Shown here: in pieces, positions 3,101-54,070 of the stretch
Layout: every line of letters starts with the position of its first letter
Position numbering within the stretch: the first letter of the stretch is position 1
Assembly: GCA_049412325.1 (NCBI GenBank)
Contig: JBMSEL010000005.1
Span: forward strand, 2,244-66,243
Direction: 5' to 3'
DNA: 64,000 nt
Origin: Poseidonia sp.
GTDB taxonomy: Archaea; Thermoplasmatota; Poseidoniia; Poseidoniales; Poseidoniaceae
Translations under genes and position numbers: made by a program
The notes under the pieces: model-generated
Told to the model about the DNA's origin: nothing
The model's input: only the letters and a program-made list of their open reading frames with translations
Databases searched by the model: none

Positions 3101-5218
3101 ATGAGGAGGGTCGCTGCTGCGCTCATGGCCTTTCTCTTCATTGCCATGTCCATCTGGTCGTTTTTGAATGAAGAAACCGTTGAAACTTGGCTCACGCAAC
3201 AGGTGGTCAATCAATCAAAAGAACCCACGAATCAACTTCCACTCCAAGACAACGAATCTTGGCTGGTGGTGGTGGTTGATTTTGAGCAAAACGTCGCTGG
3301 AAACGGTTGGGGTCCTGAAGAAGCAAGAACGATGCTTGACCAAGCCGTTGTTCCTTACATCCAGCAACTTTCCGGAGGTGTGACTAACCTTACCATCGAC
3401 GTCCACGAAACTGTGATTCGTGCCAGTGGGTCAATGGCAGATTATGGCCGAGACGAAGCAGGAAAAGATACGGCAGCGGACGGCCAATTCCTACCGAGTG
3501 CACTTGCCGAAGAGGCCGTGCTCGGCATCAAAGAGTCCGTTGACTGGAACCGTTATGACCTCAACGCCAACGGTGAGGTCGACCGATTCATGGTCCTCCA
3601 TACAACCAAAGGTCAAGAGGAAAACCCAGGTATTTCCAATCGTATTTGGAGCCATTACACGGAATTTGAGACACCGCTTGACCTTGATGGAGGCCTCACC
3701 ATCGGCCACTACACCATGGCCAGTCTTCAAACGGGAACCAGTGGAATTGGAACCATCATTCACGAAATGTTGCATCAGATGGGTGCCATTGACCTCTATC
3801 CAGTCCATGATGAGGTCAATGCTCAATCGTGGAAAGGTCCCGGGGACTGGGACATCATGGCCAGTGGAAACTGGAACGGTGGAGGTCGATGGCCGGCCAT
3901 GCCGACGGGCGCCAACATCGAACTGGTTCGACCTGAACGAGTGGATACACTGAACCTTGAATGGCCATCCACCGCGGCAAAGCCATGCATCGGTCCGACG
4001 GTTGACCTCGTTGGTGTTAGTGAGGGGGGTTCCATTCTGAAGATCCCTATCGCCCAACATGAAGCTGTTTTCATCGAGCACCGATCTGATTCAGGGTACG
4101 ATTCTCGCTTACCGGGCTACGGCGTGTTGGTGTCGTACCAAGACCTCAGTGTGGGCGACATTGAACGAAACGAAGTGAACACCAACCCCAATACCCCTTG
4201 GTTAAAGGTCATTGAAGCCGATGAAGGTGATGATTTGGTCCGTGGCTCAAACCAAGGTGAAGCCACCGACCTGTTCCTCAACAACACCTCCTTTGGTGCC
4301 GAAGGCGTAGAAATTCGGACGCATGATGGTTTCTTGGTGCCTTGGGTCGCCACCATCACCGGAGAAGACAACATCACCGTCTCGTTCGAAGCGCCCCACT
4401 GCAATCCAGAATTCCATATTGACATGAACGACCATGGCAGTACCATCCTGCCGGGCCAATCACTCACCATCGACATCACCGGCGATGTTGTAGATTGCTC
4501 CGCCAACCTCATGTCGTCCGATGGACGGAGCGTGAGCCTCGAATCCACCAGCAGCGGCCATGAGTTGGTCTACTCCACCACCGGGGTGGCCCCATCAACG
4601 GCAATCCTTCGTGGTACCATCACATGCGATGGCATGACCTTGGACCTCGAACATCCCGTTCAGGTGTTTGAGCGCATACCACGTCCTTCGCTGTTTGAGG
4701 CCAAGGTTCACCCGTCGCAACCAACGATCCTAAGCATCCCTCTCGACTCCATGGGTGAAGGTGAACAGCGATACAGTGTAGTGGTGGATGGGCCGTTGAG
4801 TCGGGTAGCAACTGGTGAGGCATTCATCACCCTGAAAGGACAGGACACCTACACGCTGATGGTTGAACCGAGTGGGCTCTTATCTGAGAACATGTTGATT
4901 TTCGGCTCGGTTCATCTTGTGACAGAAGAAGGCACAGAGTGGACAGTTGAGATCGAACTTCAGGCCACAACGCAACAAGATGAATGGTGGATGATATGGA
5001 CTGAACCCGGGAGAGTCATCGGATTGATGTTCCTGGTCTTGGCGTTCTCCTCACTCGCTGGGGCCATCGGATCGCGAGGAACGGATCGTCATGTGCCCGA
5101 GCATGTTGCGACAGACCAAACCGATCCCAGCGCCCATGCTCCACAAGGGGATGCATGGGGGCGGCCGTTGGATGAACAGGCATCAACCGGCACGCTTGAT
5201 GTTGAGGAACAATGGTGA
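3101..5218 (+). CDS. secreted/anchored M6 (immune inhibitor A-like) zinc metalloprotease
   Basis: N-terminal MRRVAAALMAFLFIAMSIW signal/anchor. IWSHYTEF and HEMLHQMGAIDLY (HExxHxxGxxDxY) match M6-type motifs. C-terminal TM segment VIGLMFLVLAFSSLAGAIG. Confidence 0.8.
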   Translation: MRRVAAALMAFLFIAMSIWSFLNEETVETWLTQQVVNQSKEPTNQLPLQDNESWLVVVVDFEQNVAGNGWGPEEARTMLDQAVVPYIQQLSGGVTNLTIDVHETVIRASGSMADYGRDEAGKDTAADGQFLPSALAEEAVLGIKESVDWNRYDLNANGEVDRFMVLHTTKGQEENPGISNRIWSHYTEFETPLDLDGGLTIGHYTMASLQTGTSGIGTIIHEMLHQMGAIDLYPVHDEVNAQSWKGPGDWDIMASGNWNGGGRWPAMPTGANIELVRPERVDTLNLEWPSTAAKPCIGPTVDLVGVSEGGSILKIPIAQHEAVFIEHRSDSGYDSRLPGYGVLVSYQDLSVGDIERNEVNTNPNTPWLKVIEADEGDDLVRGSNQGEATDLFLNNTSFGAEGVEIRTHDGFLVPWVATITGEDNITVSFEAPHCNPEFHIDMNDHGSTILPGQSLTIDITGDVVDCSANLMSSDGRSVSLESTSSGHELVYSTTGVAPSTAILRGTITCDGMTLDLEHPVQVFERIPRPSLFEAKVHPSQPTILSIPLDSMGEGEQRYSVVVDGPLSRVATGEAFITLKGQDTYTLMVEPSGLLSENMLIFGSVHLVTEEGTEWTVEIELQATTQQDEWWMIWTEPGRVIGLMFLVLAFSSLAGAIGSRGTDRHVPEHVATDQTDPSAHAPQGDAWGRPLDEQASTGTLDVEEQW

Positions 5219-6265
5219 TTCATCGCTTTGGTCAGCGCAGAGCCACCGCTTGTTGACTCCTTCAGCCAATCGAACGGCAAGGCAAACTTCCTCCCAATTT
5301 GCAGGTGCCTCTGGACGTGGCTGGATCAGCCATGGTGCATGAGCAAACTCAATGTCATCTTCGTAAGCTCGCCATCGGCACCCGTACTTGAATCCCGGAC
5401 GAAGTAAAAGGCCGGCCTCGACGAGAGCCACGTAAAGACCGTTGGAGGCTGATGAACCACTCAGAAGGTATTCTCGCTCTTCCGTTCTTAGGAATCGACC
5501 GGAAAAATGGGGCAATCCGAAGGCCGGCAACGGCCATTCATCACACGATGAAAGAAACACACCACCGTCCACCGGCGTACCCTCAAGGCACCACGTCGTC
5601 ACTTGTTCTCGTTGCTCAACATTGAGATTCCCAAGGTGCAGGTGATGACCGTTGGGCTGCATGAACGACAAATGGTAGACCGTGGTGTCAAATTCATCGT
5701 CGATGACAACCAATTCCGCAAGGTGGCCAAAGCCATGAACATCAGACACCCACTGACCGAGTTCATCCCAATCAAGCGGATCGTGTGTTCGCTGAATTCG
5801 AACTTGGGTGTTTCCAGGGTGAGTTGACCATGCCTCGTGTCGTTCCCAACGAATGGCCCAAGTTGCTTGAGGCAACTGTTCATACCTTCCAGCGAGATGT
5901 TGTGCAGGCACGACTCGCTCACCGCCGTTTCGAAGCACATCGAGGGCAATGGTTCGTCTGAGCAACGTGGTGTCTTGTTTGAGTGAGGCTTCAAACCAAC
6001 CATCGGTCTTCGGCAAGGGGAGATGACGGTACCAATGACAGAAGAGTACCTCCTCTGGCGTGAGTAACAACCCGCCTTCAACCCGCTGACCGAGTGCACT
6101 TTTCTGATGCAGACGGTGAGCGAGTGGTTCGCTCACGAACCATCCATCATCCCGTAGTATAGGTGGGTCAAGCGGGGTTGTTGGTGCCGCATTGGCGGAG
6201 CGGCCCTCGCCGATGGGTCGAGTGGTTCTTGCCCTCGGACGATATGTTCGTTCTCGCCCACCCAT
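5183..6265 (-). CDS. endA: tRNA-splicing (intron) endonuclease, long two-repeat form
   Basis: C-terminal catalytic domain strings GFKYGCRWRAYEDD and HAPWLIQP. Length is compatible with a duplicated-unit enzyme. The track start (6358) overlaps the divergent gene within a CCATGG; the internal ATG at 6265 (MGGRERT...) is proposed, and the start is uncertain. Confidence 0.8.
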   Translation of the reverse strand: MGGRERTYRPRARTTRPIGEGRSANAAPTTPLDPPILRDDGWFVSEPLAHRLHQKSALGQRVEGGLLLTPEEVLFCHWYRHLPLPKTDGWFEASLKQDTTLLRRTIALDVLRNGGERVVPAQHLAGRYEQLPQATWAIRWERHEAWSTHPGNTQVRIQRTHDPLDWDELGQWVSDVHGFGHLAELVVIDDEFDTTVYHLSFMQPNGHHLHLGNLNVEQREQVTTWCLEGTPVDGGVFLSSCDEWPLPAFGLPHFSGRFLRTEEREYLLSGSSASNGLYVALVEAGLLLRPGFKYGCRWRAYEDDIEFAHAPWLIQPRPEAPANWEEVCLAVRLAEGVNKRWLCADQSDESPLFLNIKRAG

Positions 6266-6356
6266 GTAATCTCCATCAGCGGGCTGTTTTTGATTCCGTC
6301 GCTTGAAACCGATTGTCCTATGTGCTATCGGCTCAACGCTTACCTGAGGCGCTCCC

Positions 6357-7310
6357 ATGGTTGTTGGCTATCTTGGGACATTGACGACAGAGGAGCGAAC
6401 CATGCTCCATTTGCTGAACCAGCAGCTTCCTGCGGGTGGTTGGGAAGCACCAGCATCATTGACGCAAGCAGGCATTTCAGCCGCCGTTCACGTCCAGCGA
6501 AAGCATATCCCACGGACCTTGAAGCGGATGGAGAAAAACGGGCTGCTTACCGTTGCCCAACGGCACATTCCAGGTGGAAAGCAACGAAAACGAGTCTATA
6601 CCCTGACCGAATTGGGCCGTGATATGGCCAACTCCCTCGCCCAACGCGTTCTTGACGAAGAGGTGAATGAAGGAAATACAACAAAAGTTCTAGCGGAGAT
6701 TTGGAACCGGAATGAACCACTTCTTGAATTGCTTTCGAGGGTTGATGAAGCCCGTAACCTCCAAGACGCCCCACTCGTATCTCCTGTTTCCAACCCCCAT
6801 GGCATGGCCTCGATGGATGCCCAGAATGGAGAAGCACTGGTCAGAAGAATGTATGCGAGAGCTTGGGAAGACGGCAAGATAACCCGAGACGAACAATCCC
6901 TTCTCAACGAGGTGGTGGAATTCCTTGGTATGCACCCGGAGCGTGTACGACGATTGTCCAACGAAGCAAGAAAGGCGCTGAAGATTCCACCTCCAGAGGA
7001 AGTGTACTTCGAGATGATATTGCAAGCGTTGGACGATGGGGAGATTCTCCAAGATGAAATTGACTTGTTGGATACGTTCAGAGTTCACTTCGGCATCGAC
7101 CAAGTCACCCACAACGCCCTGTTGAACCGTGCCCGCGAAACACCTGCTGTTTCAGAACACTACCAAACCTATGCTGCAGCTGTCAAAACCGCCATGCAGG
7201 ACAAGGTGATCACGGCCGACGAGCACGCCATCCTCAAAACGCTGCGAGGAACCCTTGAAATCACGGACCAAGAACACGAACGCATCATGAATGAGTTGAC
7301 GGATGAATAA
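6357..7310 (+). CDS. winged-helix transcriptional regulator fused to three TerB-like (tellurite-resistance/DjlA-N-like) repeats
   Basis: N-terminal wHTH-like LTQAGISAAVHVQRKHIPRTLKRMEKNGLLTV...RKRVYTLTELG. Three ~60-aa repeats are centred on GKITRDEQSLLNEV, GEILQDEIDLLDTF and KVITADEHAILKTL. Alternative start at ATG 6402. Confidence 0.7.
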   Translation: MVVGYLGTLTTEERTMLHLLNQQLPAGGWEAPASLTQAGISAAVHVQRKHIPRTLKRMEKNGLLTVAQRHIPGGKQRKRVYTLTELGRDMANSLAQRVLDEEVNEGNTTKVLAEIWNRNEPLLELLSRVDEARNLQDAPLVSPVSNPHGMASMDAQNGEALVRRMYARAWEDGKITRDEQSLLNEVVEFLGMHPERVRRLSNEARKALKIPPPEEVYFEMILQALDDGEILQDEIDLLDTFRVHFGIDQVTHNALLNRARETPAVSEHYQTYAAAVKTAMQDKVITADEHAILKTLRGTLEITDQEHERIMNELTDE

Positions 7311-8394: not shown

Positions 8395-8889
8395 ATGAGT
8401 GCTTGGTTGTGGCCCACGACCGCCGACGTCGGCATGCGAGTCTTTGCCAAAAATTACGCCTCGTTGTTGGCTGAAGCAGCAGAAGGGATGCAATCGTATC
8501 TCCTGAGTGAAACAAGTGCTCGTAACTTGAACGCTTGCGTACGAAAGACTGGGGAGTGGCGGGTTCGCTCCGAACACCGTCCGGCGGATGAGGAGTTTCT
8601 CTTCCTCGCTTGGCTTGATGAACTCCTCTACAGAGCCGAAGTGCATGGGCAATGGTATGTGGATGGACAGGTTCACGTCTTACGAGAACCAGATGGATTG
8701 ACCGCTGTAGCCCAAGTCTCTTTCATTGACGCTGAGCAAGTTGAACGAGAAATCGAAATTAAAGCGGTCACCACCCATCAATTGGTGGTCGCTGAACTAC
8801 AATCAGGAGAGGTTGTGACAAGCCATTGGGATGACGTGCCGTCCTTCGAAGGTCCAGGCTGGTACGCCGATGTTGTCTTTGACATTTAA
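8395..8889 (+). CDS. archease (RtcB activator / RNA-modification chaperone)
   Basis: TTADVGMRVFA N-terminal strand (HTADxG-like) and C-terminal IKAVTTHQLVV ... ADVVFDI are typical archease signature positions. 164 aa. Confidence 0.85.
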   Translation: MSAWLWPTTADVGMRVFAKNYASLLAEAAEGMQSYLLSETSARNLNACVRKTGEWRVRSEHRPADEEFLFLAWLDELLYRAEVHGQWYVDGQVHVLREPDGLTAVAQVSFIDAEQVEREIEIKAVTTHQLVVAELQSGEVVTSHWDDVPSFEGPGWYADVVFDI

Positions 8890-33644: not shown

Positions 33645-34118
33645 TCAGTTCAGGTCATTTCGAGACACGCCGGCCATGGTCAGCACCTCGTCAAAGTGGG
33701 CTGCATCCACGGGTTGCACGGACAAACGCTGACCTCGCTGGAGGAGTGGCATTCCCTCGAGATTGGGATTTTCCTTCATCGCATGAAGCGAAACCATGGC
33801 CAGTTCCAGAACAGGTTCAATGTCAACCATGAACCATCTTGGATGATCTGGTGTTGATTTTTCGTCGTAGTAGTTGCCTTCAGCATCCCACGAGGTGAAA
33901 TCCGGGTAGCCTTCCCTTGCAATGCGAGCCACCCCGGCCACATGGGGAGGTTTGGTGTTGGAGTGATAAAACAGTACAAGATCGCCTTCTTTCATCGCAT
34001 CACGCATCATGTTTCGGGCCTGATAATTTCGGACGCCGTCCCAATGGGTTTTCCCATCGGCCACCAATTGTGCGTAAGGGTAGACATCCAACTCCGACTT
34101 CATCAGCCAGTGGTTCAT
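33645..34118 (-). CDS. EVE (PUA-like) domain protein
   Basis: MNHWLMKSELDVYPY...THWDGVRNYQARNMMRDAMKEGDLVLFYHSN is the typical EVE-domain N-terminus. 157 aa. Confidence 0.85.
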   Translation of the reverse strand: MNHWLMKSELDVYPYAQLVADGKTHWDGVRNYQARNMMRDAMKEGDLVLFYHSNTKPPHVAGVARIAREGYPDFTSWDAEGNYYDEKSTPDHPRWFMVDIEPVLELAMVSLHAMKENPNLEGMPLLQRGQRLSVQPVDAAHFDEVLTMAGVSRNDLN

Positions 34119-39854: not shown

Positions 39855-40985
39855 TTATTCTTCTCCGAAGAGTGTGGTTTGGCGGGATGGTGGCATCTCC
39901 AATTGACCCAATCGAAAGCCGATCAACCGGACCCGACTTTCAGGTCGGATGTTGGTCGCAAAGAGTTGCTTCGCCAAGCGTTTGAACACAGCCTCATCGT
40001 CCATGGCAACAGGGATACTCCGCCCGCTCGTGTGCGTCTCAAAGCCAGTGTAGCGAATTTTCACCTCACCCAAGCGGCCGGAAACGCCGAGATTGCGAGC
40101 TCGTTCCATCACCAAATCCACGAGCGTATCCAACCTCGCAAGCACATCCTCGTGGTCGTCAAGATCCTGCTCAAACGTGTGCTCCTTCCCGATGGATTTC
40201 CTGCTGCGAAGCGGACTGACCACCGCACTGCTTTCACCTTCGACCACTCGCATGAACCAGGTCGCGAACCGGTCTCCTGCCAAACGTGCCAGGGAGAGTT
40301 CACCTAACGCATACAATTCATCTGCCGTGGTGTAGCCCCACTCTGCCAGTTGCGTTGCACGCTTGGGCCCGATACCGGGGACGTCCCTGAGGGAACGGCC
40401 CTCAAAAAACGATGAAACTTCATCGGGCATCACGCGATGAATCCCGTTGGGTTTGTTCACTTCACTCGACATTTTCGCGACAATGCGTGTCGGCCCGATG
40501 CCAAAGGAAGCGGTTAGGTTCACCCGTTTTTTGATCTCCCGCTGCAGTTGATTCGCCAGGGCCAAGGCTGCATCCCAATCTCCACCAACGGTTTCTGTCA
40601 CGTCCATGTAGGCTTCATCGATGCTGGCTTTTTCAAACAGGACCGCAGGTTCTCGCAGACATGCCATGACTTTTCGACTCGCTCGACTGTACAGACCCCG
40701 CGTACCACGGATGTAGATGGCTGGTCCGAACGGGGCAGCAGGGCAACGTCGCCACGCTTCTGAGACGGGCATGGCGGACCGTATGCCAAATGTCCGTGCT
40801 GCGTAATTGCATGTGGAAACAATACCCCGTCCACGACCTTGCTTTGGGTCCGAACCAATGATGAGGGGGACCTCGCTGTCGAAGCCATGGTGGAGCGTTT
40901 CCACCGCCGCAAAGAACGCATCGAGGTCACAATGAATCAACACGCGAGGCCCCTCTGCCTCAACGGCCATCGACTCCTCAACCAC
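39855..40985 (-). CDS. dinB: Y-family DNA polymerase IV (DinB/Dpo4-like)
   Basis: VLIHCDLDAFFAAVE, STCNYAARTFGIRSAMP, SIDEAYMDVT, and LRDVPGIGPK. Confidence 0.9.
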   Translation of the reverse strand: MVEESMAVEAEGPRVLIHCDLDAFFAAVETLHHGFDSEVPLIIGSDPKQGRGRGIVSTCNYAARTFGIRSAMPVSEAWRRCPAAPFGPAIYIRGTRGLYSRASRKVMACLREPAVLFEKASIDEAYMDVTETVGGDWDAALALANQLQREIKKRVNLTASFGIGPTRIVAKMSSEVNKPNGIHRVMPDEVSSFFEGRSLRDVPGIGPKRATQLAEWGYTTADELYALGELSLARLAGDRFATWFMRVVEGESSAVVSPLRSRKSIGKEHTFEQDLDDHEDVLARLDTLVDLVMERARNLGVSGRLGEVKIRYTGFETHTSGRSIPVAMDDEAVFKRLAKQLFATNIRPESRVRLIGFRLGQLEMPPSRQTTLFGEE

Positions 40986-41044
40986 GATGATACAAACACG
41001 CCAGCGGTGTTTGAACTTGATGTGTGTTCAGTTCAAGTTGAGGG

Positions 41045-41872
41045 GTGTTCACAAGCATAGATGACCTCCGAGAGCGACCTTCGATGATTGACATGAAGCG
41101 AGATCTTGGCACCACTGTGGGAAGGAACATCGGACTTGTGCGGCGCACACAGGGCATTGACCCATCCCAAATTCAACCGCAAGCGGGTCAACTGTACCAC
41201 CTCAGCGGACCGGGGCGTTCGGGCAAGAGCATGCGTTGTATTGCCGAGCATTGGGTTGCCCACGCATTGGCTCAAGGACAAACTGTCCACTGGGTGGACG
41301 GTGCTTGCAGAATCGACCCTGCACGGTTCATTCCACTTCTCGAAGCGATGGGGGCCAAGGTTGAACCGTGCCTGTCACGGCTCTATCTCAGTCGAGGATT
41401 CACGCTGCATCAACTCGACCGGCAACTGGAACGGCTACCCGATGAATTGGCCATCACACGTTCACCAATGGTGGTGGTGGACGGGTTGTTGGCCATGCAC
41501 GGCGACGACGCCATCTCTTCGCTGGAATCACGCACCCTTCTTCGACGGCACGTGAAGATCCTGCAAAATCTCGCCCACCAACATCACGCAGCCGTCGTCG
41601 CCATCACCGGGCTCGACCACGGCCCATCTGAAAGTGCACGCCATGTGAAGCATGTGAGGCGCCATTCGCAAAATCACCTTGAAGGCGCATGGCGGGGTCG
41701 ACGGCGGCAACGGTTGCTGCATGTCGTTCATCGACGAAGTGGCCTCCAAGGTGCTTGGCAGCCCTTCCATCGAGACCCACAGACTGCTTTTTTACTCCCG
41801 AAACGACGACTCAATCGTCAAGAGGTGGCTTCATCGGTTGGGGTTCTTGCGTTGCATCATACTGAGTCGTGA
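41045..41872 (+). CDS. RecA-superfamily ATPase, RadB-like, with Arg/His-rich C-terminal tail
   Basis: GTG start 59 nt from the dinB ATG. Walker A LSGPGRSGKS, then VHWVDGACRIDPARF and the Walker B-like strand MVVVDGLLAMHG. Its 3' end overlaps the polB 3' end by 62 nt. Confidence 0.65.
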   Translation: MFTSIDDLRERPSMIDMKRDLGTTVGRNIGLVRRTQGIDPSQIQPQAGQLYHLSGPGRSGKSMRCIAEHWVAHALAQGQTVHWVDGACRIDPARFIPLLEAMGAKVEPCLSRLYLSRGFTLHQLDRQLERLPDELAITRSPMVVVDGLLAMHGDDAISSLESRTLLRRHVKILQNLAHQHHAAVVAITGLDHGPSESARHVKHVRRHSQNHLEGAWRGRRRQRLLHVVHRRSGLQGAWQPFHRDPQTAFLLPKRRLNRQEVASSVGVLALHHTES

Positions 41873-44324
41873 ACGCAAATAACGTGGGTTGTCGACCGTC
41901 GTTTCGCAGTTGGTCCGTGGTCCAACCAAATGGAGCGAGGAGCGCCCAAATGGCACGTTCTGCCAATTCAGCGTAGTGTTCGACACACGCATGAACACCG
42001 TCCGGCAACGAATCCAATTCTTCTGCAAGAACCACGCGGTCGAGCAAGGCATGTGAATCACGGTTCATGACCACGTAGCGAACTTTTCCTCCAGCAGGGA
42101 CCTCGTACCCGCGTTCGTTGGCTCGCATGAGGGCGGCGTAGGTCACGTTCTTGACGCGATAGTCACTCAGTGAGCGGCTGGTTCGGCGGGTGATCACCAG
42201 TTCACTCAGCGGAATTTCGCCCTGTTCCAACCGCTGGAGTTCACACCTGTAGTGATTCAAGACAGTGCGCTGCGTTTCAAACGAGGGAAGCCCCTCCTTG
42301 CGTTGACCTGCTGCGAGGTATTCCAATCCAACGCGCTGCAACCGTTGAATCCAGATTGGCGTCGAATGTTGTCGCATCTCAATCCCGCGGACTTTGAACG
42401 AATCGCCATCATACGCCCAGTACTTTGTCAATGAACCGGACCCGTGGACCCGGCTAGGAAGAAACGCAATGAACTCGTAGTGCGCCTCGAACTCGAGAGG
42501 AATACCGACCTGTTCAGAGATGCGGGAAGCAAACGCCTCGGCGTCCACCCGTTGCTGGTGCTTCGTTCGCCCTTGCGTATCCGAAAGCCAAACGCAGTCG
42601 ACGATGGCATGGAGGACATCCCATCCGTCCTTTTGGGCCTCTTCAATGGTGGTCAATAAGAGGTCTCGAGACCACGCACAAATCGCTTCATGCGCTTCAA
42701 TCCGACCAAACCGGGCGTTTCGATAACCGGTATAACCAAAACACGTGACCAGCAGCCACTTGAGTGCGTTTTGTCGCAGGTCAAAGGCGTCGCCTTTCTG
42801 TTGACGTTGATGCTTCAATTCACATCGTCGCTCGATGATGGGTGCCACGACACGCCCGAGAAAACCGTGCGTTCTCCCACACGTGTGCATGTTGAGCCCC
42901 GGTACGGCAAGGGCTTTCTCGTGAGCGAGTGGGAAAAGACCATGTCCGAAACGAGCGTGAACCGACCGTTGCCGAAATTCGTTGGCGGCTTGTTCTGGAT
43001 GGAGCGGCACAATGCCTCGCATGGATGCCGAAGTCGGTGGTTGACAGCACGAACAATTCAGGGTCTCAGGCGAGATGTTCCGTGTGGCGATGATGCTCGG
43101 AAACAGGCTCGCAAAATCAAGTTCAATCACCGATGCATGGACGCCAGGGCGACTGTCAAGGTACAGGCCTCCTCGGTCGGCTTGTAAGAGATCCAGTGCC
43201 GATTTCGTGTCTTCGGGACGATTTTTCTTCCAAGGTACGAGCACACCGTCGTCCATGGCCACGCGCATTTGAATGGCACTGATCACCGAGCCCGGAGAAA
43301 GTCGGGAGATGATTTGAGCCGATTGACGCGAGTGCTGAGCGAGCTCGAAAAGACCGGAAAGACCTCCTTCGCTCACGATGAAACTGTTCTTGAGATCGAT
43401 GTGGAGGCGGCCGTTGAGAAAAAAGGCTCCGTGGCGATGCCGAGTTTGGCCGTAGGAGTGGACCGTGCGTTGGTTGGTCGTTTGCTGAAGCGATTCCGAT
43501 GTTCGCCCCAACACCATCGGCTGACCGTGAAGCATCCCTTGCTCAACCAACCATGGAAACCAGCGCTGATCACCCCCCTCCGTGAGAAGAATGTCCGGAT
43601 CCATCGCATCATACGCTGCCTGAACAGCGACCAACATGGACGCCATGGAACCATGTTCAGAACGTCTGATGGTCAATGAACGAAGTGGCTGTCGCGGTGA
43701 AATACCGGGCTCGTGAACTGTTTCCAAACGAAACCACTCCACGGTGTCATGGAGGGTCGGTAGCCCTTGGCCAGAGGTGCGTTTCACGGCCATTTTGACA
43801 ACGTGAAACGGAGGGTAGACCTCACTTTTTGAGTGGTTTGAGCACATTGACAAACGCGTTGACTCATCAGCGGACCACCGTACTCGACCAAAGGGTATGC
43901 ATTCGTGGTCGTTGAGGAATCGCTGGGCTAAGTGCGCGTCGACAGAATAGAGTTTGAAACGGTGAAAATCCCCCCGTGCTTCAATGTGTTCAGCCAGTCC
44001 ACGAACATGCTGGAACGACTGGAGACCGACTTCAAGAACATCGCTTTGGCCATCGGCTTCCAAATCCAAACGCGCTCGCGTCATGTGAGGTTGGTTGAGG
44101 GTGAAACGCTGCTGAATTTCAGGCTGTTCGAGCCAGTGCTCCAACCGGTTGAGGTCGGTATGCGATGCGTGAACATGGATCACCGGTTGCCATGGAACTG
44201 CACACGCATGGGCGAGACCGTCGTCGTCAATCACCCAGGCTGTCATACCGGTGTTGTCCTTGTTCGCATGAACGTCAAGAAGCCATCCTTCAATCATCGC
44301 CATGCCGTTCCTCAAGGACTTCAA
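41811..44324 (-). CDS. polB: family B DNA polymerase with degenerate 3'-5' exonuclease motifs and altered motif C (PolB2-like)
   Basis: Motif A LDFASLFPSIIATRNISPETL, motif B region RQNALKWLLVTCFGYTGY, and motif C position LHAIVDCVW. Exo I/II positions read VVKMAV and GGDQRWFPWL. Likely start at ATG 44303 or 44297 (MAMIEGW). Confidence 0.85.
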   Translation of the reverse strand: MKSLRNGMAMIEGWLLDVHANKDNTGMTAWVIDDDGLAHACAVPWQPVIHVHASHTDLNRLEHWLEQPEIQQRFTLNQPHMTRARLDLEADGQSDVLEVGLQSFQHVRGLAEHIEARGDFHRFKLYSVDAHLAQRFLNDHECIPFGRVRWSADESTRLSMCSNHSKSEVYPPFHVVKMAVKRTSGQGLPTLHDTVEWFRLETVHEPGISPRQPLRSLTIRRSEHGSMASMLVAVQAAYDAMDPDILLTEGGDQRWFPWLVEQGMLHGQPMVLGRTSESLQQTTNQRTVHSYGQTRHRHGAFFLNGRLHIDLKNSFIVSEGGLSGLFELAQHSRQSAQIISRLSPGSVISAIQMRVAMDDGVLVPWKKNRPEDTKSALDLLQADRGGLYLDSRPGVHASVIELDFASLFPSIIATRNISPETLNCSCCQPPTSASMRGIVPLHPEQAANEFRQRSVHARFGHGLFPLAHEKALAVPGLNMHTCGRTHGFLGRVVAPIIERRCELKHQRQQKGDAFDLRQNALKWLLVTCFGYTGYRNARFGRIEAHEAICAWSRDLLLTTIEEAQKDGWDVLHAIVDCVWLSDTQGRTKHQQRVDAEAFASRISEQVGIPLEFEAHYEFIAFLPSRVHGSGSLTKYWAYDGDSFKVRGIEMRQHSTPIWIQRLQRVGLEYLAAGQRKEGLPSFETQRTVLNHYRCELQRLEQGEIPLSELVITRRTSRSLSDYRVKNVTYAALMRANERGYEVPAGGKVRYVVMNRDSHALLDRVVLAEELDSLPDGVHACVEHYAELAERAIWALLAPFGWTTDQLRNDGRQPTLFAFTTQYDATQEPQPMKPPLDD

Positions 44325-44532
44325 GCCGGGCAGAAAGCCGCGTCAGTTCGGACATCAATCCGACCAGCATGCTGAGCACGGCTGGCTGCCATGTGTTCAA
44401 CGTCGGAAGAAGACCTCCAGCGGTCCTTCGCTCGCGCACTTCGTTAAGCAAGGCATCAAACGCCTCGCGATCACTCGGATTCAAGGCGCGACGGTACGGG
44501 GCCAAGTTCTGCAGTTCACTCTCAACACGCAT
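44290..44532 (-). CDS. small conserved-looking hypothetical protein translationally coupled to polB
   Basis: MRVESELQNLAPYRRALNPSDREAFDALLNEVRERR... Its stop (gat gat tga) overlaps the polB atg att gaa. The track ORF extends to 44637, but that would overlap the serA-like 3' end. Confidence 0.5.
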   Translation of the reverse strand: MRVESELQNLAPYRRALNPSDREAFDALLNEVRERRTAGGLLPTLNTWQPAVLSMLVGLMSELTRLSARLEVLEERHGDD

Positions 44533-44623
44533 TCGCCATGACGGTACACTTCGACCCATACCAGCGTGTGGGCCAAGAAGCAAGGGATGCTTATCCGAGA
44601 CCCAGTTGTTGAAAGTGAAAGTG

Positions 44624-46865: not shown

Positions 46866-47576
46866 TCAGTCAAGCCAAGGGATGCGTTCGGGCAACTCAC
46901 CAAACAGGTTGGCGGGAATCGCTGTCTTGATCTTTGATACGCTTCCGAGTTTGGCCGCTGTTTCATCTTGCCAGGCCTTGAATTCATCATAGGAGGTCAT
47001 CGATAAAACCGGGTTGTGTTTCCGGTTCCAGTCCAGCGACATCATCTCGGTACCGGGGGGGTCATGCCCCGAGCACACCACCGTAGAGCCTTCGAATCGC
47101 GAGAGAACCTGAAGGGCGTCCCAGTGCACGTGAATCCGACCACTTGGCAAATCATCTCGACCGACACCACCTGCGCCATTGAACAGGAAATCACCTGTCA
47201 TCATGTAGCCGGGAACATGGACGATCATCGAATCGTTGGTGTGACCGGGGGCAGCGTGGAATTGAATGGGAATGGAACCGAGCATGATTTTCTCTTCGTC
47301 GTCAACGTGCATGGTCACGCCGAGGCTCGCCGTCTCGGTTGACATGACGTACGCACAGTCGTACATCGCTTGCAAGCTGAAACACGCTGTGATGTGGTCG
47401 GCATGCGTGTGGGTCGCAATGACATAGACCAACGTAAGGCCATCATTCTTGAGGAGGTCAACATACTGTTGCATGAAATCGTACACCGGGTCCACCAAGG
47501 CCGCTTCCTTCGTGGCCTCATCCACGATCAAATACGTCATCGCCCAACCTCCCTCATTCAACTGTTCGAAGCGCAT
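46866..47576 (-). CDS. MBL-fold metallo-hydrolase
   Basis: Start set at ATG 47576 (MRFEQLNEGGW). VIATHTHADHITA (HxHxDH), APGHTNDS, and CSGHD. Confidence 0.8.
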   Translation of the reverse strand: MRFEQLNEGGWAMTYLIVDEATKEAALVDPVYDFMQQYVDLLKNDGLTLVYVIATHTHADHITACFSLQAMYDCAYVMSTETASLGVTMHVDDEEKIMLGSIPIQFHAAPGHTNDSMIVHVPGYMMTGDFLFNGAGGVGRDDLPSGRIHVHWDALQVLSRFEGSTVVCSGHDPPGTEMMSLDWNRKHNPVLSMTSYDEFKAWQDETAAKLGSVSKIKTAIPANLFGELPERIPWLD

Positions 47577-47655
47577 GGTTGAGCCGAGAGATAGGAGTGA
47601 TTTGAAGGTTGATGTCAGGGCATTCATCATATACCGTCGTCGTGGTTGTTTGGCC

Positions 47656-48861
47656 ATGACAGCCCTCATAGAATACGGACTTCTCCTCGTAGGCCTTGCC
47701 ATCGGTGCTTCGGTTGGGTGGCTCCTCGCGAAGCAATCGTTTTCTGGCCAACTGATCCGTGCTGAAGAACGCCTCCGGGCCAACGAAGCCAGTGCAGTTG
47801 GAAACGAACAACGAATTCGGGCCGAGGTTGAAAACATCGCCATCAAAATCGGTGAGGAAAACTCAGCCCGCTTCCTTGAGATGGCGCAAGCCAAACTTGT
47901 CAATCAGCAACAAGATGCTACGCATGAGTTGGAACTTCGCAAATTGGAGGTCGCCAACCTTGTCAAACCCATTCAAGAAGAGATGGCCAAACTCACCGTG
48001 ATGAACGCAGAAATGGAAAAAGAACGTGCGGGAGCGTACGAAGGTATCAAGCGGCACCTCAAGGAATTAGGAGAAAAAACAGAATCGCTTTCCACCCGCA
48101 CGACGGCGCTTTCGACTGCGTTGACCACCTCGAGCCAAGCACGAGGGAATTGGGGCGAAGTGAAACTCCGGCGTTTGTTCGAGATGGCTGGGATGAGTGA
48201 AAACATCGATTTTGATGAACAAGCCACCCTCGCTGACGGCAGTCGGCCAGACTTCGTGGTTCGCTTGCCGGACAGCGGTGTCATCCCGATTGATTCCAAA
48301 GCAACCGGAGCCCATTTTCTGCAAGCGGCTGAGCTTGAGCCCGGAGACGAGCAGACCATGTTGCTCAAGAAACATGCCAAAGCCATGCGAGGGAGAATTG
48401 CGGAACTCAGCAAGAAGGCCTATCAAGAAACCATTGAAGGCGAATTCGATCATGTCGTGATGTTCGTCCCAAGCGAAGCCATGGCGGCTGCAGCCTTTTC
48501 TATGGATGCCGAATTGATGGATTATGCCATGAGCAAGTCTGTTCTCATTGCCACACCTGTCACGATGCTTGGTTTGTTGAGAACCGTGGCGCTGTACTGG
48601 CAACAGCATGCGCTGGCTGAAGGTGCGAACGAAATCTACGAAGTCTCACGAGAACTCTACAAGCGAGTGAATACGACGATGGACCACTTTGTGAAGGTTG
48701 GTGGGCACCTTAGCAAAGCAGCCAAGGCTTACGACGCTACGATGAATTCATACGGACGACGCGTCTTACCTCAGGCTCGGCGATTGGAAGAACTCAAGGT
48801 GTCTGAAACGTTGCAATCAACACTCCCCGAACCAACGGAAATCGAGTATCCCAAAGAATGA
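47656..48861 (+). CDS. rmuC: DNA recombination protein RmuC
   Basis: Start set at ATG 47656 (MTALIEYGLLLVGLAIG anchor). Coiled coil, then RGNWGEVKLRRLFEMAGM, RPDFVVRLPDSGVIPIDSK, and MFVPSEA. Confidence 0.85.
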   Translation: MTALIEYGLLLVGLAIGASVGWLLAKQSFSGQLIRAEERLRANEASAVGNEQRIRAEVENIAIKIGEENSARFLEMAQAKLVNQQQDATHELELRKLEVANLVKPIQEEMAKLTVMNAEMEKERAGAYEGIKRHLKELGEKTESLSTRTTALSTALTTSSQARGNWGEVKLRRLFEMAGMSENIDFDEQATLADGSRPDFVVRLPDSGVIPIDSKATGAHFLQAAELEPGDEQTMLLKKHAKAMRGRIAELSKKAYQETIEGEFDHVVMFVPSEAMAAAAFSMDAELMDYAMSKSVLIATPVTMLGLLRTVALYWQQHALAEGANEIYEVSRELYKRVNTTMDHFVKVGGHLSKAAKAYDATMNSYGRRVLPQARRLEELKVSETLQSTLPEPTEIEYPKE

Positions 48862-48907: not shown

Positions 48908-49627
48908 ATGCACCCCTCCGAGGTCATCTACTTGGAGCATGACGGCAAGGTGCTGCTGGTTGATGAATCTGGAAATGGACCACGACAACCCGTGAAAGGT
49001 CGGGCGACTGGGGGCACCGAACTTCGGTTCCCGACCCGTAAGGAAGTCGAGGCGTTGGGCATTGAATTCACGGAAAAAAACCATCTCTGCCTCCGATACA
49101 ATGAGGATGAATTCCATGTCAAGAAAGCGTACCCGCTGATGGACTGGCCGAAGGATTGGGCATGGAAAGATGCGTGCGTCTCTGACAACGCTGTCCATCC
49201 CGTGGCCCGTGATGCCATCTATCGGTCCATTCATCGGCTTGTATCGAAAGTGATGGTGTGCAACCAAACCGGTGATGTGCTCATGGCCAAGGTTGAGCGT
49301 GGTCATTTCAGGGGATTCTGGACGCTCCCTGGAGGATACATGGACCACGACGAACATCCAGCCGTCGGGTGTGTTCGCGAAACACTCGAGGAACTCGGAC
49401 TCAACATCGTCCTTGATGATATGGAACCCGTTGTCACGCAGAACATCTTCAACGACGAAGGCATCTCCTTCGTTTCGTTCACCTATCGCTCAACATGGAA
49501 CGGGAAGTTGAACGAACTCACACTGCAAACTGAAGAAATCTCTGAAGCCGCATGGTTTTCACCAACGGAAGCCTTCAACCAAGCGGTTTCGTACTTCGAT
49601 CGAGAGGCCCTTCGAAGCCTGTTATGA
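48908..49627 (+). CDS. NUDIX hydrolase with extra N-terminal domain
   Basis: Nudix box GGYMDHDEHPAVGCVRETLEELGL in the C-terminal half. Confidence 0.8.
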   Translation: MHPSEVIYLEHDGKVLLVDESGNGPRQPVKGRATGGTELRFPTRKEVEALGIEFTEKNHLCLRYNEDEFHVKKAYPLMDWPKDWAWKDACVSDNAVHPVARDAIYRSIHRLVSKVMVCNQTGDVLMAKVERGHFRGFWTLPGGYMDHDEHPAVGCVRETLEELGLNIVLDDMEPVVTQNIFNDEGISFVSFTYRSTWNGKLNELTLQTEEISEAAWFSPTEAFNQAVSYFDREALRSLL

Positions 49628-52549: not shown

Positions 52550-54070
52550 ATGGTGAGCAAAAAGTCTCAAATCAAATGCCCGAGAGCCCGTATCATGGAA
52601 CCTACATGGCGCCAGCACCTCGTAGACGAGGGTGATGGTACCATGCGCATCAAAGCTCACGGGATGATGAAGACGGATGCCAGATTGGTAACCGATGCCG
52701 CTCACATGAAACGTCATGCTGACGACCGTGGGCCCGAGCAACTCGTCAACACAGCAGCGCTCCCCGGAATTGTTGGAGAGGCGTGGGCTATGGCCGACTG
52801 GCATTATGGCTATGGGTTTCCCATTGGGGGCGTTGTTGCCACCGACACCGAAGCAGGGGAACTCGGCGGAGCGGTGTCACCTGGTGGTGTCGGCTTTGAC
52901 ATCAATTGTGGCGTTCGATTTCTTGCCCTCGAAGCAACAGCCCAAGACATTCCAAACCTCAAGAAACTTGCAGGACGATTGGCGGGAAGGATCCCCGCTG
53001 GGGGCTCCGGTAAGGGCGGCGTTGATCTCAGCCAACAAGACCTCAACAACCTGCTACAACGAGGTGCGCATGCTGCCGTGGATTTGGGTTACGGACTCCA
53101 TGAGGACTTGAACCATCTTGAGTCGCAGGGCCTTCTCGAAACGGAGGAAGCCAATCTTTCCCAGCGCGCAAGAGAGCGAGGTCTGCGATCATTGGGCACG
53201 CTTGGCAGCGGCAACCACTTCCTTGAATTGCAGACCGTTGGGAAGGTGGTTGATGAAAAGACCGCAAAGGCGTGGGGCCTCTTTGAAGACCAAGTTGTCG
53301 CTATGATTCATTCTGGTAGCCGAGGCCTTGGGCACCAAGTCTGTACGGACCATGTCCGGCAACTCGAAGCAACCTACAAACTCCAACAAGGTGTTTGGCA
53401 TAACGAAACATGGGGCTACGAACTCCCCGACAGGCAATTGGCAGCTGCCCCCATCCACTCGCCAGAGGGACAAGCCTACCTCGATTCGATGAACGCTGCA
53501 GCAAACTTTGCGTTTGCCAACCGGGCTGTCCTCGCTGAGCGGTTGCGAACGGTCCTTCGATTGGAGATGGGTGTTGACGGTGAAGCAAGAACGTTGTACG
53601 ATGTCGCCCACAACATAGCAAAAATGGAAACACACGTCATCCACGGACGTTCCTGCTCGTGCTGCGTCCATCGCAAGGGTGCCACTCGTGCGTTTGGTGG
53701 AGATCATGCCGATATTGGTGCTCAATTCAGTCTGACGGGCCAACCGGTGATTGTTCCAGGCGACATGGGTAACGGTTCCTGGATCATGGCTGGTGCTCCA
53801 GTGGGCAGCAATGCGGCCTTTGGTTCATCGTGCCACGGAGCAGGGAGGGCCCTCTCAAGAAGTCAAGCAAAAAAGACACAGGATGGAAAAGCGCTGAAGC
53901 GAATGCTTGAGGAACGAGGTGTTCGTGTCCACGCCTCAACACCGAACGTGCTCTCTGAAGAAGCGCCGGATGCCTACAAAGATGTCGACGAGGTCATCGC
54001 TTTGACCGCCAAGGCCGATTTGGCCCGACCCGTGGCCAGAATGAATCCCCTCGCCGTCATCAAAGGCTGA
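52550..54070 (+). CDS. rtcB: RNA-splicing ligase RtcB
   Basis: AMADWHYGYGFPIGGV, GVGFDINCGVR, GSGNHFLELQ, IHSGSRGLGHQ, and SSCHGAGR. Alternative start at ATG 52595. Confidence 0.95.
   Translation: MVSKKSQIKCPRARIMEPTWRQHLVDEGDGTMRIKAHGMMKTDARLVTDAAHMKRHADDRGPEQLVNTAALPGIVGEAWAMADWHYGYGFPIGGVVATDTEAGELGGAVSPGGVGFDINCGVRFLALEATAQDIPNLKKLAGRLAGRIPAGGSGKGGVDLSQQDLNNLLQRGAHAAVDLGYGLHEDLNHLESQGLLETEEANLSQRARERGLRSLGTLGSGNHFLELQTVGKVVDEKTAKAWGLFEDQVVAMIHSGSRGLGHQVCTDHVRQLEATYKLQQGVWHNETWGYELPDRQLAAAPIHSPEGQAYLDSMNAAANFAFANRAVLAERLRTVLRLEMGVDGEARTLYDVAHNIAKMETHVIHGRSCSCCVHRKGATRAFGGDHADIGAQFSLTGQPVIVPGDMGNGSWIMAGAPVGSNAAFGSSCHGAGRALSRSQAKKTQDGKALKRMLEERGVRVHASTPNVLSEEAPDAYKDVDEVIALTAKADLARPVARMNPLAVIKG

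Follow-up and report, generated by a model that had tools for sequence, protein, structure and literature searches.

We analyzed a 64,000-nucleotide stretch of DNA from Poseidonia sp. (GenBank assembly GCA_049412325.1, contig JBMSEL010000005.1, positions 2,244 to 66,243; hereafter, the window), and we propose that a family-B DNA polymerase gene on its reverse strand, polB2 (41811..44303), very probably encodes the catalytic subunit of the archaeal PolB2 'mutasome' in this member of the Poseidoniales (marine group II). The protein combines a full-length family-B fold from which the exonuclease site is gone with retention of D403, D576 and the motif B lysine and of the HxxxD and D(K/R) signatures, and its gene is co-encoded with those for PPB2 and an inactivated RadA paralog (iRadA). 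Archaeal PolB2 enzymes are defined by the HxxxD form of motif C (PMC8764526), and by its sequence features the 41811..44303 gene product is an ordinary member of this described family. An earlier reading of the gene from sequence alone (hereafter, the sequence-only reading) recognized neither the defining signature of this named family nor the adjacent partner genes.

The 837-codon open reading frame (ORF) was confirmed exactly at 41811..44324 on the reverse strand, where all polB2 features given below lie; the open frame begins with a TTG at 44324. Residue numbers follow this ORF, and the coordinates of all motifs were re-translated and checked. Translation more likely initiates at the ATG at 44303 (MAMIEGW...), which predicts a protein of 830 amino acids (aa), because relatives begin at the position of Met8 and because homologs measure 828-830 aa. 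The mechanically assigned starts of polB2 (TTG 44324), PPB2 (GTG 44637) and iRadA (GTG 41045) are all likely too long, and homolog lengths and conserved N-termini favor ATG starts at 44303, 44559 and 41084, respectively. A Pfam scan matched DNA_pol_B to residues 356-763 of the polB2 ORF (E = 9.7e-21) and gave no match to DNA_pol_B_exo1. A large protein database held 880 PolB2 homologs, the best of which were 800-830 aa long, 96-48% identical, and from metagenome bins of Poseidoniales and Thermoplasmatota; when 1.84 billion cluster representatives were searched exhaustively, 546 clusters matched at E <= 1e-30. Unless another sample is named, conservation counts refer to an alignment of 238 full-length PolB2 relatives reaching down to ~28% identity.

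The polymerase active site was read from HMMER alignments to the structures of Tgo, 9N and KOD PolB and from an hhalign alignment of the family profile to Pfu PolB, for which the reference sequence agreed with PDB 3a2f_A at every one of its 775 residues. Motif A, LDFASLFPSII (43089..43121), pairs with LDFRALYPSII and contains the catalytic Asp403, kept in 238/238 relatives. Motif B, KWLLVTCFGYTGY (42723..42761), pairs with KLLANSFYGYYGY of the reference PolB; its Lys522 is found in 237/238 relatives (Arg in the remaining one) and its Gly530 in all 238. Motif C, VLHAIVDCVW (42588..42617), is of the PolB2-type HxxxD form, with His572, Ile574 and Asp576. Both methods set LHAIVDCVW against LYIDTDGLY, such that the first Asp is replaced by Ile and the Thr by Val, while the second Asp is kept. 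His572 is present in 235/238 relatives and Asp576 in 238/238, and the column of the first Asp is always of the I/L/V type, with Asp in 0/238, giving a family pattern of H-[AG]-[ILV]-[VT]-D-[CS]; HAIVDC, or 'IVD', is also the motif given for cataloged PolB2 in the supplement of PMC11791011. These alignments uphold the sequence-only reading of an intact motif A, a motif B with its Lys and Gly, and a HAIVDC motif C that keeps only the second Asp, the DTD not being shifted. Since D403 and D576 are invariant and K522 is kept in 237/238 relatives, the conservation pattern argues for a working PolB2 polymerase site.

The segment NRPEDTKSALDLLQADRGG (43167..43223, aa 368-386) spans a flexible beta-alpha loop and the D(K/R) motif, here D383-R384 within ADRGG, with D383 in 238/238 relatives and Arg or Lys at position 384 in 233/238. 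In published PolB2 models, the loop region bearing D(K/R) is where iRadA and PPB2 make contact (PMC11791011). The Phe of an FxxA-like segment before D(K/R) is replaced by Thr in Poseidoniales. Separately, the steric-gate Tyr of motif A (SLYPS) is Phe here (SLFPS; aa 408, 43104..43106), and at this position the 238 PolB2 sequences divide into 130 with Phe and 108 with Tyr.

All three exonuclease motifs are lost. The Exo II-equivalent segment is LLTEGGDQRWFPWL (43548..43589, aa 246-259): TEGGDQRWFPWL pairs with TYNGDSFDFPYL of Pfu, placing Trp255 at the position of the catalytic D215, and the Asp of the retained GD is the non-catalytic one. Across the family this catalytic column is occupied by L/H/W/I/V. 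The Pfu segment with YSMED, which carries the Exo III motif YxxxD, has no counterpart in the hhalign alignment and falls within a deletion of ~55-60 residues at GRLHIDLKNSFIVSEGGLSGLFEL (43341..43412, aa 305-328); the shortened region is also present in a cataloged bacterial PolB2. The Exo I-equivalent strand, FHVVKMAVKR (43779..43808, aa 173-182), lies in a stretch, FHVVKMAVKRTSG, that contains no Asp or Glu. A global hhalign alignment, which is of weak confidence here, places Pfu D141/E143 on Ala179/Lys181, two residues away from the register of the sequence-only reading (Lys177/Ala179), and HMMER comparisons with the Protein Data Bank (PDB), whether by single sequence or by profile, left the first ~215 residues unaligned and were uninformative on Exo I. 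The loss holds in either register because the whole strand lacks an acidic residue; the Exo I columns are variable across the relatives. Thus the claimed family-B polymerase without Exo I-III residues is confirmed, including the lack of a catalytic Asp in EGGDQRWFPWL and of an Exo III YxxxD, and for Exo I the loss of acidic residues stands while the exact pairing is uncertain by two residues. Of the replicative PolB signature of DxE, NxxxFD, YxxxD and YxDTD, all four elements are absent or altered in this polymerase.

In the original view of PolB2, current from 2008 to 2014, these proteins were catalytically dead pseudo-polymerases that act as scaffolds or regulators only. The first Asp of DTD and all of the exonuclease carboxylates are missing here, inactivation of the family was predicted by Makarova et al. 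2014 (PMC4104785), and the partner RadA paralog is degenerate too. We nevertheless consider a dead scaffold improbable. All 238 relatives have both metal-ligating residues, the Asp of motif A and the second Asp of motif C, 237 of them have the Lys of motif B, and H572 and D383 are conserved, a pattern of catalytic-residue conservation that would not be expected in a dead enzyme and that for this reason disfavors the dead-enzyme reading. In addition, Dpo2 carries the same substitutions and equals the replicase Dpo1 in activity (PMC8764526). Purified Sulfolobus Dpo2, which has an HxxxD motif C (IID) and has lost its Exo motifs, shows robust nucleotide incorporation with no detectable 3'-5' exonuclease activity (PMC8764526); it inserts weakly opposite lesions, efficiently extends mismatched and lesion-paired termini, and is required for damage-induced mutagenesis in Sulfolobus. 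This biochemistry and the residue conservation among the relatives lend support to the suggestion, already made in the sequence-only reading, of a proofreading-deficient enzyme that may still be competent. By analogy with Dpo2, we expect that the Poseidonia PolB2 polymerizes without proofreading and that its main role would be in extension: once a different polymerase has placed a base across from the lesion, it would elongate primer ends that are mismatched or paired with a lesion.

Profile comparisons place the protein within PolB2 rather than among other family-B polymerases. The NCBIfam models NF004418 and NF004416 scored 420 and 364 bits, and the other PolB models listed (archaeal pol I-type, bacterial Pol II and the pol2 superfamily) all scored below 80 bits. 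Direct comparison with a cataloged PolB2 was made through the 399-residue N-terminal fragment printed in the supplement of PMC11791011, which BLASTP aligned at E = 1e-44 with short gaps only, spanning the entire N-terminal and exonuclease half together with the shortened Exo III region. An AlphaFold2 model built from 77 homologs (pLDDT 84, pTM 0.82) matched DNA-bound 9N, KOD and Tgo PolB over its full length in Foldseek, with TM scores of 0.68-0.75. Because the model superposes on archaeal PolB over the full length, the fold of the exonuclease domain is, as modeled, kept even though its active site is lost. Confidence in the model is low for residues 279-290 (exonuclease-domain region), for residues 525-532, which directly follow motif B, and for the C-terminal tail, and residues 361-380, the loop before D(K/R), have pLDDT values below 50.

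The disordered C-terminal tail of the model carries a candidate PCNA-binding motif, the PIP-like RQPTLFAF (QxxLxxF; 41871..41894, aa 811-818). Since this motif falls on the Pfu PIP box RQVGLTSW in the hhalign alignment and its Leu and Phe are widely conserved, recruitment to PCNA through PolB2 itself is plausible, and in our proposed mechanism the polymerase would be brought to the clamp by this QxxLxxF tail. The neighboring DinB polymerase has a similar end, RQTTLFGEE (39855..39890, reverse strand), and the RQxTLF ends of the two polymerases may represent a common clamp-binding motif.

Immediately upstream of polB2, and overlapping its start by 14 nt, lies a gene for PPB2 (arCOG07300/DUF8156; 44290..44559, reverse strand), a protein of 89 aa that begins with MGRSVPSWR. 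The MGRSVP start does not vary among 26 homologs, and conservation of R9 among them reaches at least 90%. In published models of the PolB2 complex an 'MGRT' arm with Arg3 and Arg9 provides the key contact (PMC11791011). A local Pfam scan of this PPB2 returned no match; in precomputed annotations, all of its homologs carry PF26485/DUF8156. The PPB2 model consists entirely of helices (7-25, 28-47 and 57-88) apart from an N-terminal arm that is free, and a Foldseek search with it found no sigma-factor-like match.

The second partner gene, convergent with polB2, encodes a 262-aa paralog of the RadA/Rad51 core that lacks the N-terminal domain (41084..41872, forward strand); the 3' ends of the two genes overlap by 62 nt (41811..41872). 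Matches to Pfam Rad51 and NCBIfam RadB were weak, and the profile aligned only to the Rad51/RadB ATPase core. Residues 42-49 (GPGRSGKS) fall on Walker A and residues 72-75 (VVVD) on Walker B. DTEG is replaced by DGAC, so that the catalytic Glu is Ala, and in 64 homologs this column is Ala in 60 and never acidic, while the Walker A Lys is kept in 34. Because the catalytic Glu is replaced and the Walker A Lys is decaying across the homologs, this product is, as judged from sequence, an inactivated RadA paralog, iRadA. An active ATPase, which GPGRSGKS and VVVD might have indicated, was rejected as a trait of the lineage on the same columns. Nucleotide binding without hydrolysis is possible for this copy, whose P-loop (GxxxxGKS) is canonical. 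At the iRadA C-terminus (41811..41880, forward strand) most Poseidoniales homologs share a hydrophobic [GV]-x-L-x-L-x-H segment, here VGVLALHH, which is not a canonical PIP box.

Divergent from iRadA lies a gene for a Y-family polymerase of the DinB/Pol IV type (39855..40985, reverse strand), with Pfam IMS and IMS_C domains and an NCBIfam NF002677 score of 261.8 bits against a cut-off of 256. Poseidoniales relatives with PolB2 identities as low as 51% share the order PGDH, PPB2, PolB2, convergent iRadA, DinB, a class-I aminoacyl-tRNA synthetase and MMPL, and in a more distant lineage (loci L004 and L005) DinB is missing from the module while PPB2, PolB2 and convergent iRadA are present. We also surveyed one genome per species, searching the flanks of polB2 with hidden Markov models: at each Poseidoniales locus where a partner was found, PPB2 is upstream and iRadA downstream on the opposite strand. 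Of five Poseidoniales arrangements inspected, four (L001, L004, L006 and L007) have polB2 and iRadA 3' ends that overlap by 49-62 nt, and in the fifth (L008) a 50-nt gap separates them. Relatives of 30-35% identity from Methanomassiliicoccales, Thermoplasmata, Bathyarchaeia, Hadarchaeota and Halobacteriota, and also one Chitinophagales bacterium, have a co-oriented iRadA-PPB2-PolB2 operon. The published catalog assigns Poseidoniales entries to operon group '3b (PPB2-PolB2-iRadA)', PPB2/PolB2 pairs from Poseidoniales are among the published AlphaFold models (PMC11791011), and Poseidoniales PolB2 operons were already listed in Timinskas et al. 2025.

This gene context, together with the profile scores, bears on the possibility that the gene encodes the cell's replicative, PolB3-type family-B polymerase, with proofreading lost in this lineage. 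Among solved structures, those of the replicative Thermococcales PolB enzymes are indeed the closest, and the PIP-like C-terminus occupies the same position as the Pfu PIP box. We regard this possibility as very improbable, given that the archaeal pol I-type, bacterial Pol II and pol2 superfamily models stay under 80 bits against the 420 and 364 bits of the two best models, that the HxxxD and D(K/R) signatures are present, that linkage to PPB2 and iRadA is tight in all lineages examined, and that relatives are located in canonical PolB2 operons. A polymerase carried into the chromosome by a casposon, virus or plasmid is more improbable still, since, common as divergent family-B polymerases are on archaeal mobile elements (PMC4104785), G+C content and skew are flat across the region, the neighbors are housekeeping genes (PGDH, aminoacyl-tRNA synthetases and MMPL) in a synteny conserved down to 51% PolB2 identity, and no cas1, integrase or capsid match occurred among the Pfam-scanned ORFs, which include all polB2 neighbors.

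Guided by published AlphaFold models of related complexes, we expect that the working form would be an assembly of PolB2, a PPB2 trimer and iRadA (PolB2 : 3 PPB2 : iRadA). The adjacent DinB is a plausible inserter in an inserter-plus-extender pair in which PolB2 would be the extender. Induction of the module by DNA damage is probable, perhaps through a tandem ACTTTC element upstream of PPB2.

This tandem element, ACTTTCACTTTC (44611..44622, reverse strand), resembles ANTTTC and is located 52-63 nt before the ATG of PPB2. The window contains no other exact copy and no other promoter-proximal A[CT]TTTCA. In Sulfolobales, a damage-response element, 5'-ANTTTC-3', is bound by Orc1-2, which controls dpo2 there (PMC6061795), and ACTTTCACTTTC is thus a candidate damage-response promoter element. 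Sense-strand A[CT]TTTC was found upstream of PPB2 at 24/33 dereplicated Poseidoniales loci, there at -66 to -56 (shuffled controls: mean 3.5, maximum 9), in 12/31 Poseidoniales iRadA upstream regions, and, with no antisense occurrence, upstream of 13/19 canonical operons belonging to other orders (shuffled controls: mean 1.4, maximum 7), all of these being counts of a 6-nt motif at loci that are related to one another. Within the window, ACTTTCACTTTC with up to two mismatches was not enriched (7 matches against 5.5 expected), and the window alone does not suffice to define a regulon; those ORFs of the 64-kb window that were scanned with Pfam included no Orc1/Cdc6 gene. We offer only tentatively, and as a rather unlikely proposition, that A[CT]TTTC upstream of PolB2 modules marks an Orc1/Cdc6-type damage regulon in Poseidoniales and in other Thermoplasmatota, Halobacteriota and Bathyarchaeia. 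If true, regulons of this type would reach far beyond Crenarchaeota, and the regulon of group II archaea would govern a two-polymerase island, with DinB as inserter and PolB2 as extender, along with the separately transcribed iRadA. In the spacer between DinB and iRadA, GGTGTTTGAACTTGATG (41003..41022) is conserved at many Poseidoniales loci; an inverted repeat in the same spacer, CAAACAC-N7-GTGTTTG, was considered as an operator and dropped, as it is not conserved in relatives.

Several points weigh against the mutasome assignment or its functional details. Activity and the extender role are extrapolated from the Sulfolobales enzymes, which are too distant to appear among the retrieved relatives and are much shorter, with motif C at residues 401-403 compared to 574-576 here. 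A single co-oriented three-gene operon was not found in the Poseidoniales; iRadA is convergent at every Poseidoniales locus where a homolog of it was found, and because it is on the opposite strand the three genes do not form one operon in this order. The Exo I pairing is only weakly aligned, and the upstream A[CT]TTTC counts are a lead rather than a result.

Comparison with known systems clarifies which properties are shared and which are particular to this lineage. With Dpo2 of Sulfolobus (Saccharolobus) islandicus the Poseidonia protein shares an HxxxD motif with Ile at the first Asp (IVD here; IID there, 401-IID-403 in PMC11791011), the lost Exo motifs and the invariant D(K/R) loop, and the two systems share the PPB2-PolB2-iRadA gene order, a PPB2 with an MGR[TS] N-terminal arm, and a RadA paralog lacking both the N-terminal domain and the catalytic Glu. 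In contrast to Dpo2, which is the smallest known PolB2, the Poseidonia protein has ~830 aa and a complete, inactive exonuclease fold, its iRadA gene is convergent and overlaps polB2, it has an insertion of ~40 aa in a four-cysteine loop and a Thr at the FxxA-like Phe position, and its host is a mesophilic marine archaeon. With the operons of Thermoplasmata, Methanomassiliicoccales and Bathyarchaeia and with bacterial PolB2 (group G2) it shares three orthologous proteins, and PolB2 is 30-35% identical over the full length, with motifs A, B and C and the four-Cys cluster in common. The arrangement differs, in that iRadA-PPB2-PolB2 are on one strand in the canonical operons, whereas Poseidoniales iRadA is downstream on the opposite strand, usually with DinB attached.

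The four cysteines in question (C424, C426, C427 and C482; 42879..43055, aa 424-482) form a CxCC...C cluster that is kept complete in 227/238 relatives and that could be a metal site. The loop between them measures 46-55 aa in Poseidoniales compared to a median of 14 aa in other PolB2, and the stretch has no Pfu counterpart. The cluster encloses a Poseidoniales-specific insertion of ~40 aa with a conserved FGHGLFPL segment.

Farther afield, the expected mode of action resembles that of eukaryotic Pol zeta (Rev3), another family-B polymerase without proofreading that extends mismatched or lesion-paired termini after a Y-family inserter. This is a likeness in mode of action and not in family membership, for Pol zeta has Rev7 and Pol31/Pol32 subunits, a canonical DTD motif C, and no RadA-like or PPB2 partner. 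The Escherichia coli Pol V mutasome (UmuD'2C-RecA-ATP) offers the same theme of a translesion polymerase joined with a small oligomeric accessory protein, a RecA-family protomer and clamp binding (PMC11791011), but its catalytic subunit is of the Y family, its RecA is the active cellular recombinase, and it is regulated by LexA. The Thermococcales PolB enzymes (Pfu, Tgo, KOD and 9N) have the fold, motifs A and B and the C-terminal PIP position in common with PolB2, and differ in having active Exo I-III and YxDTD motifs while lacking the D(K/R) loop and partner proteins.

Other genes in the window were noted in passing. Near the polymerase cluster are genes for RmuC (47449..48861), a NUDIX protein (48908..49627) and an EVE-domain protein (33645..34118), and tRNA-splicing genes are scattered across the window (tRNA intron endonuclease, 5183..6358; archease, 8395..8889; RtcB ligase, 52550..54070).

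The feature described here is the defining signature of a known, biochemically characterized family, and the operon type of this lineage is already cataloged. The lineage features, which comprise the convergent iRadA, the ~40 aa insertion, the PIP-like tail and the ANTTTC-like element, leave the picture of the PolB2 family unchanged and provide leads for work on the PolB2 mutasome. For annotation, our analysis implies that the gene should be named a PolB2 translesion-type polymerase, and not an inactive or replicative PolB, and that the unnamed flanking ORFs should be called PPB2 and iRadA. The cluster of DinB, PolB2, PPB2 and iRadA is probably the main damage-tolerance and mutagenesis machinery of marine group II archaea, which inhabit sunlit surface water.

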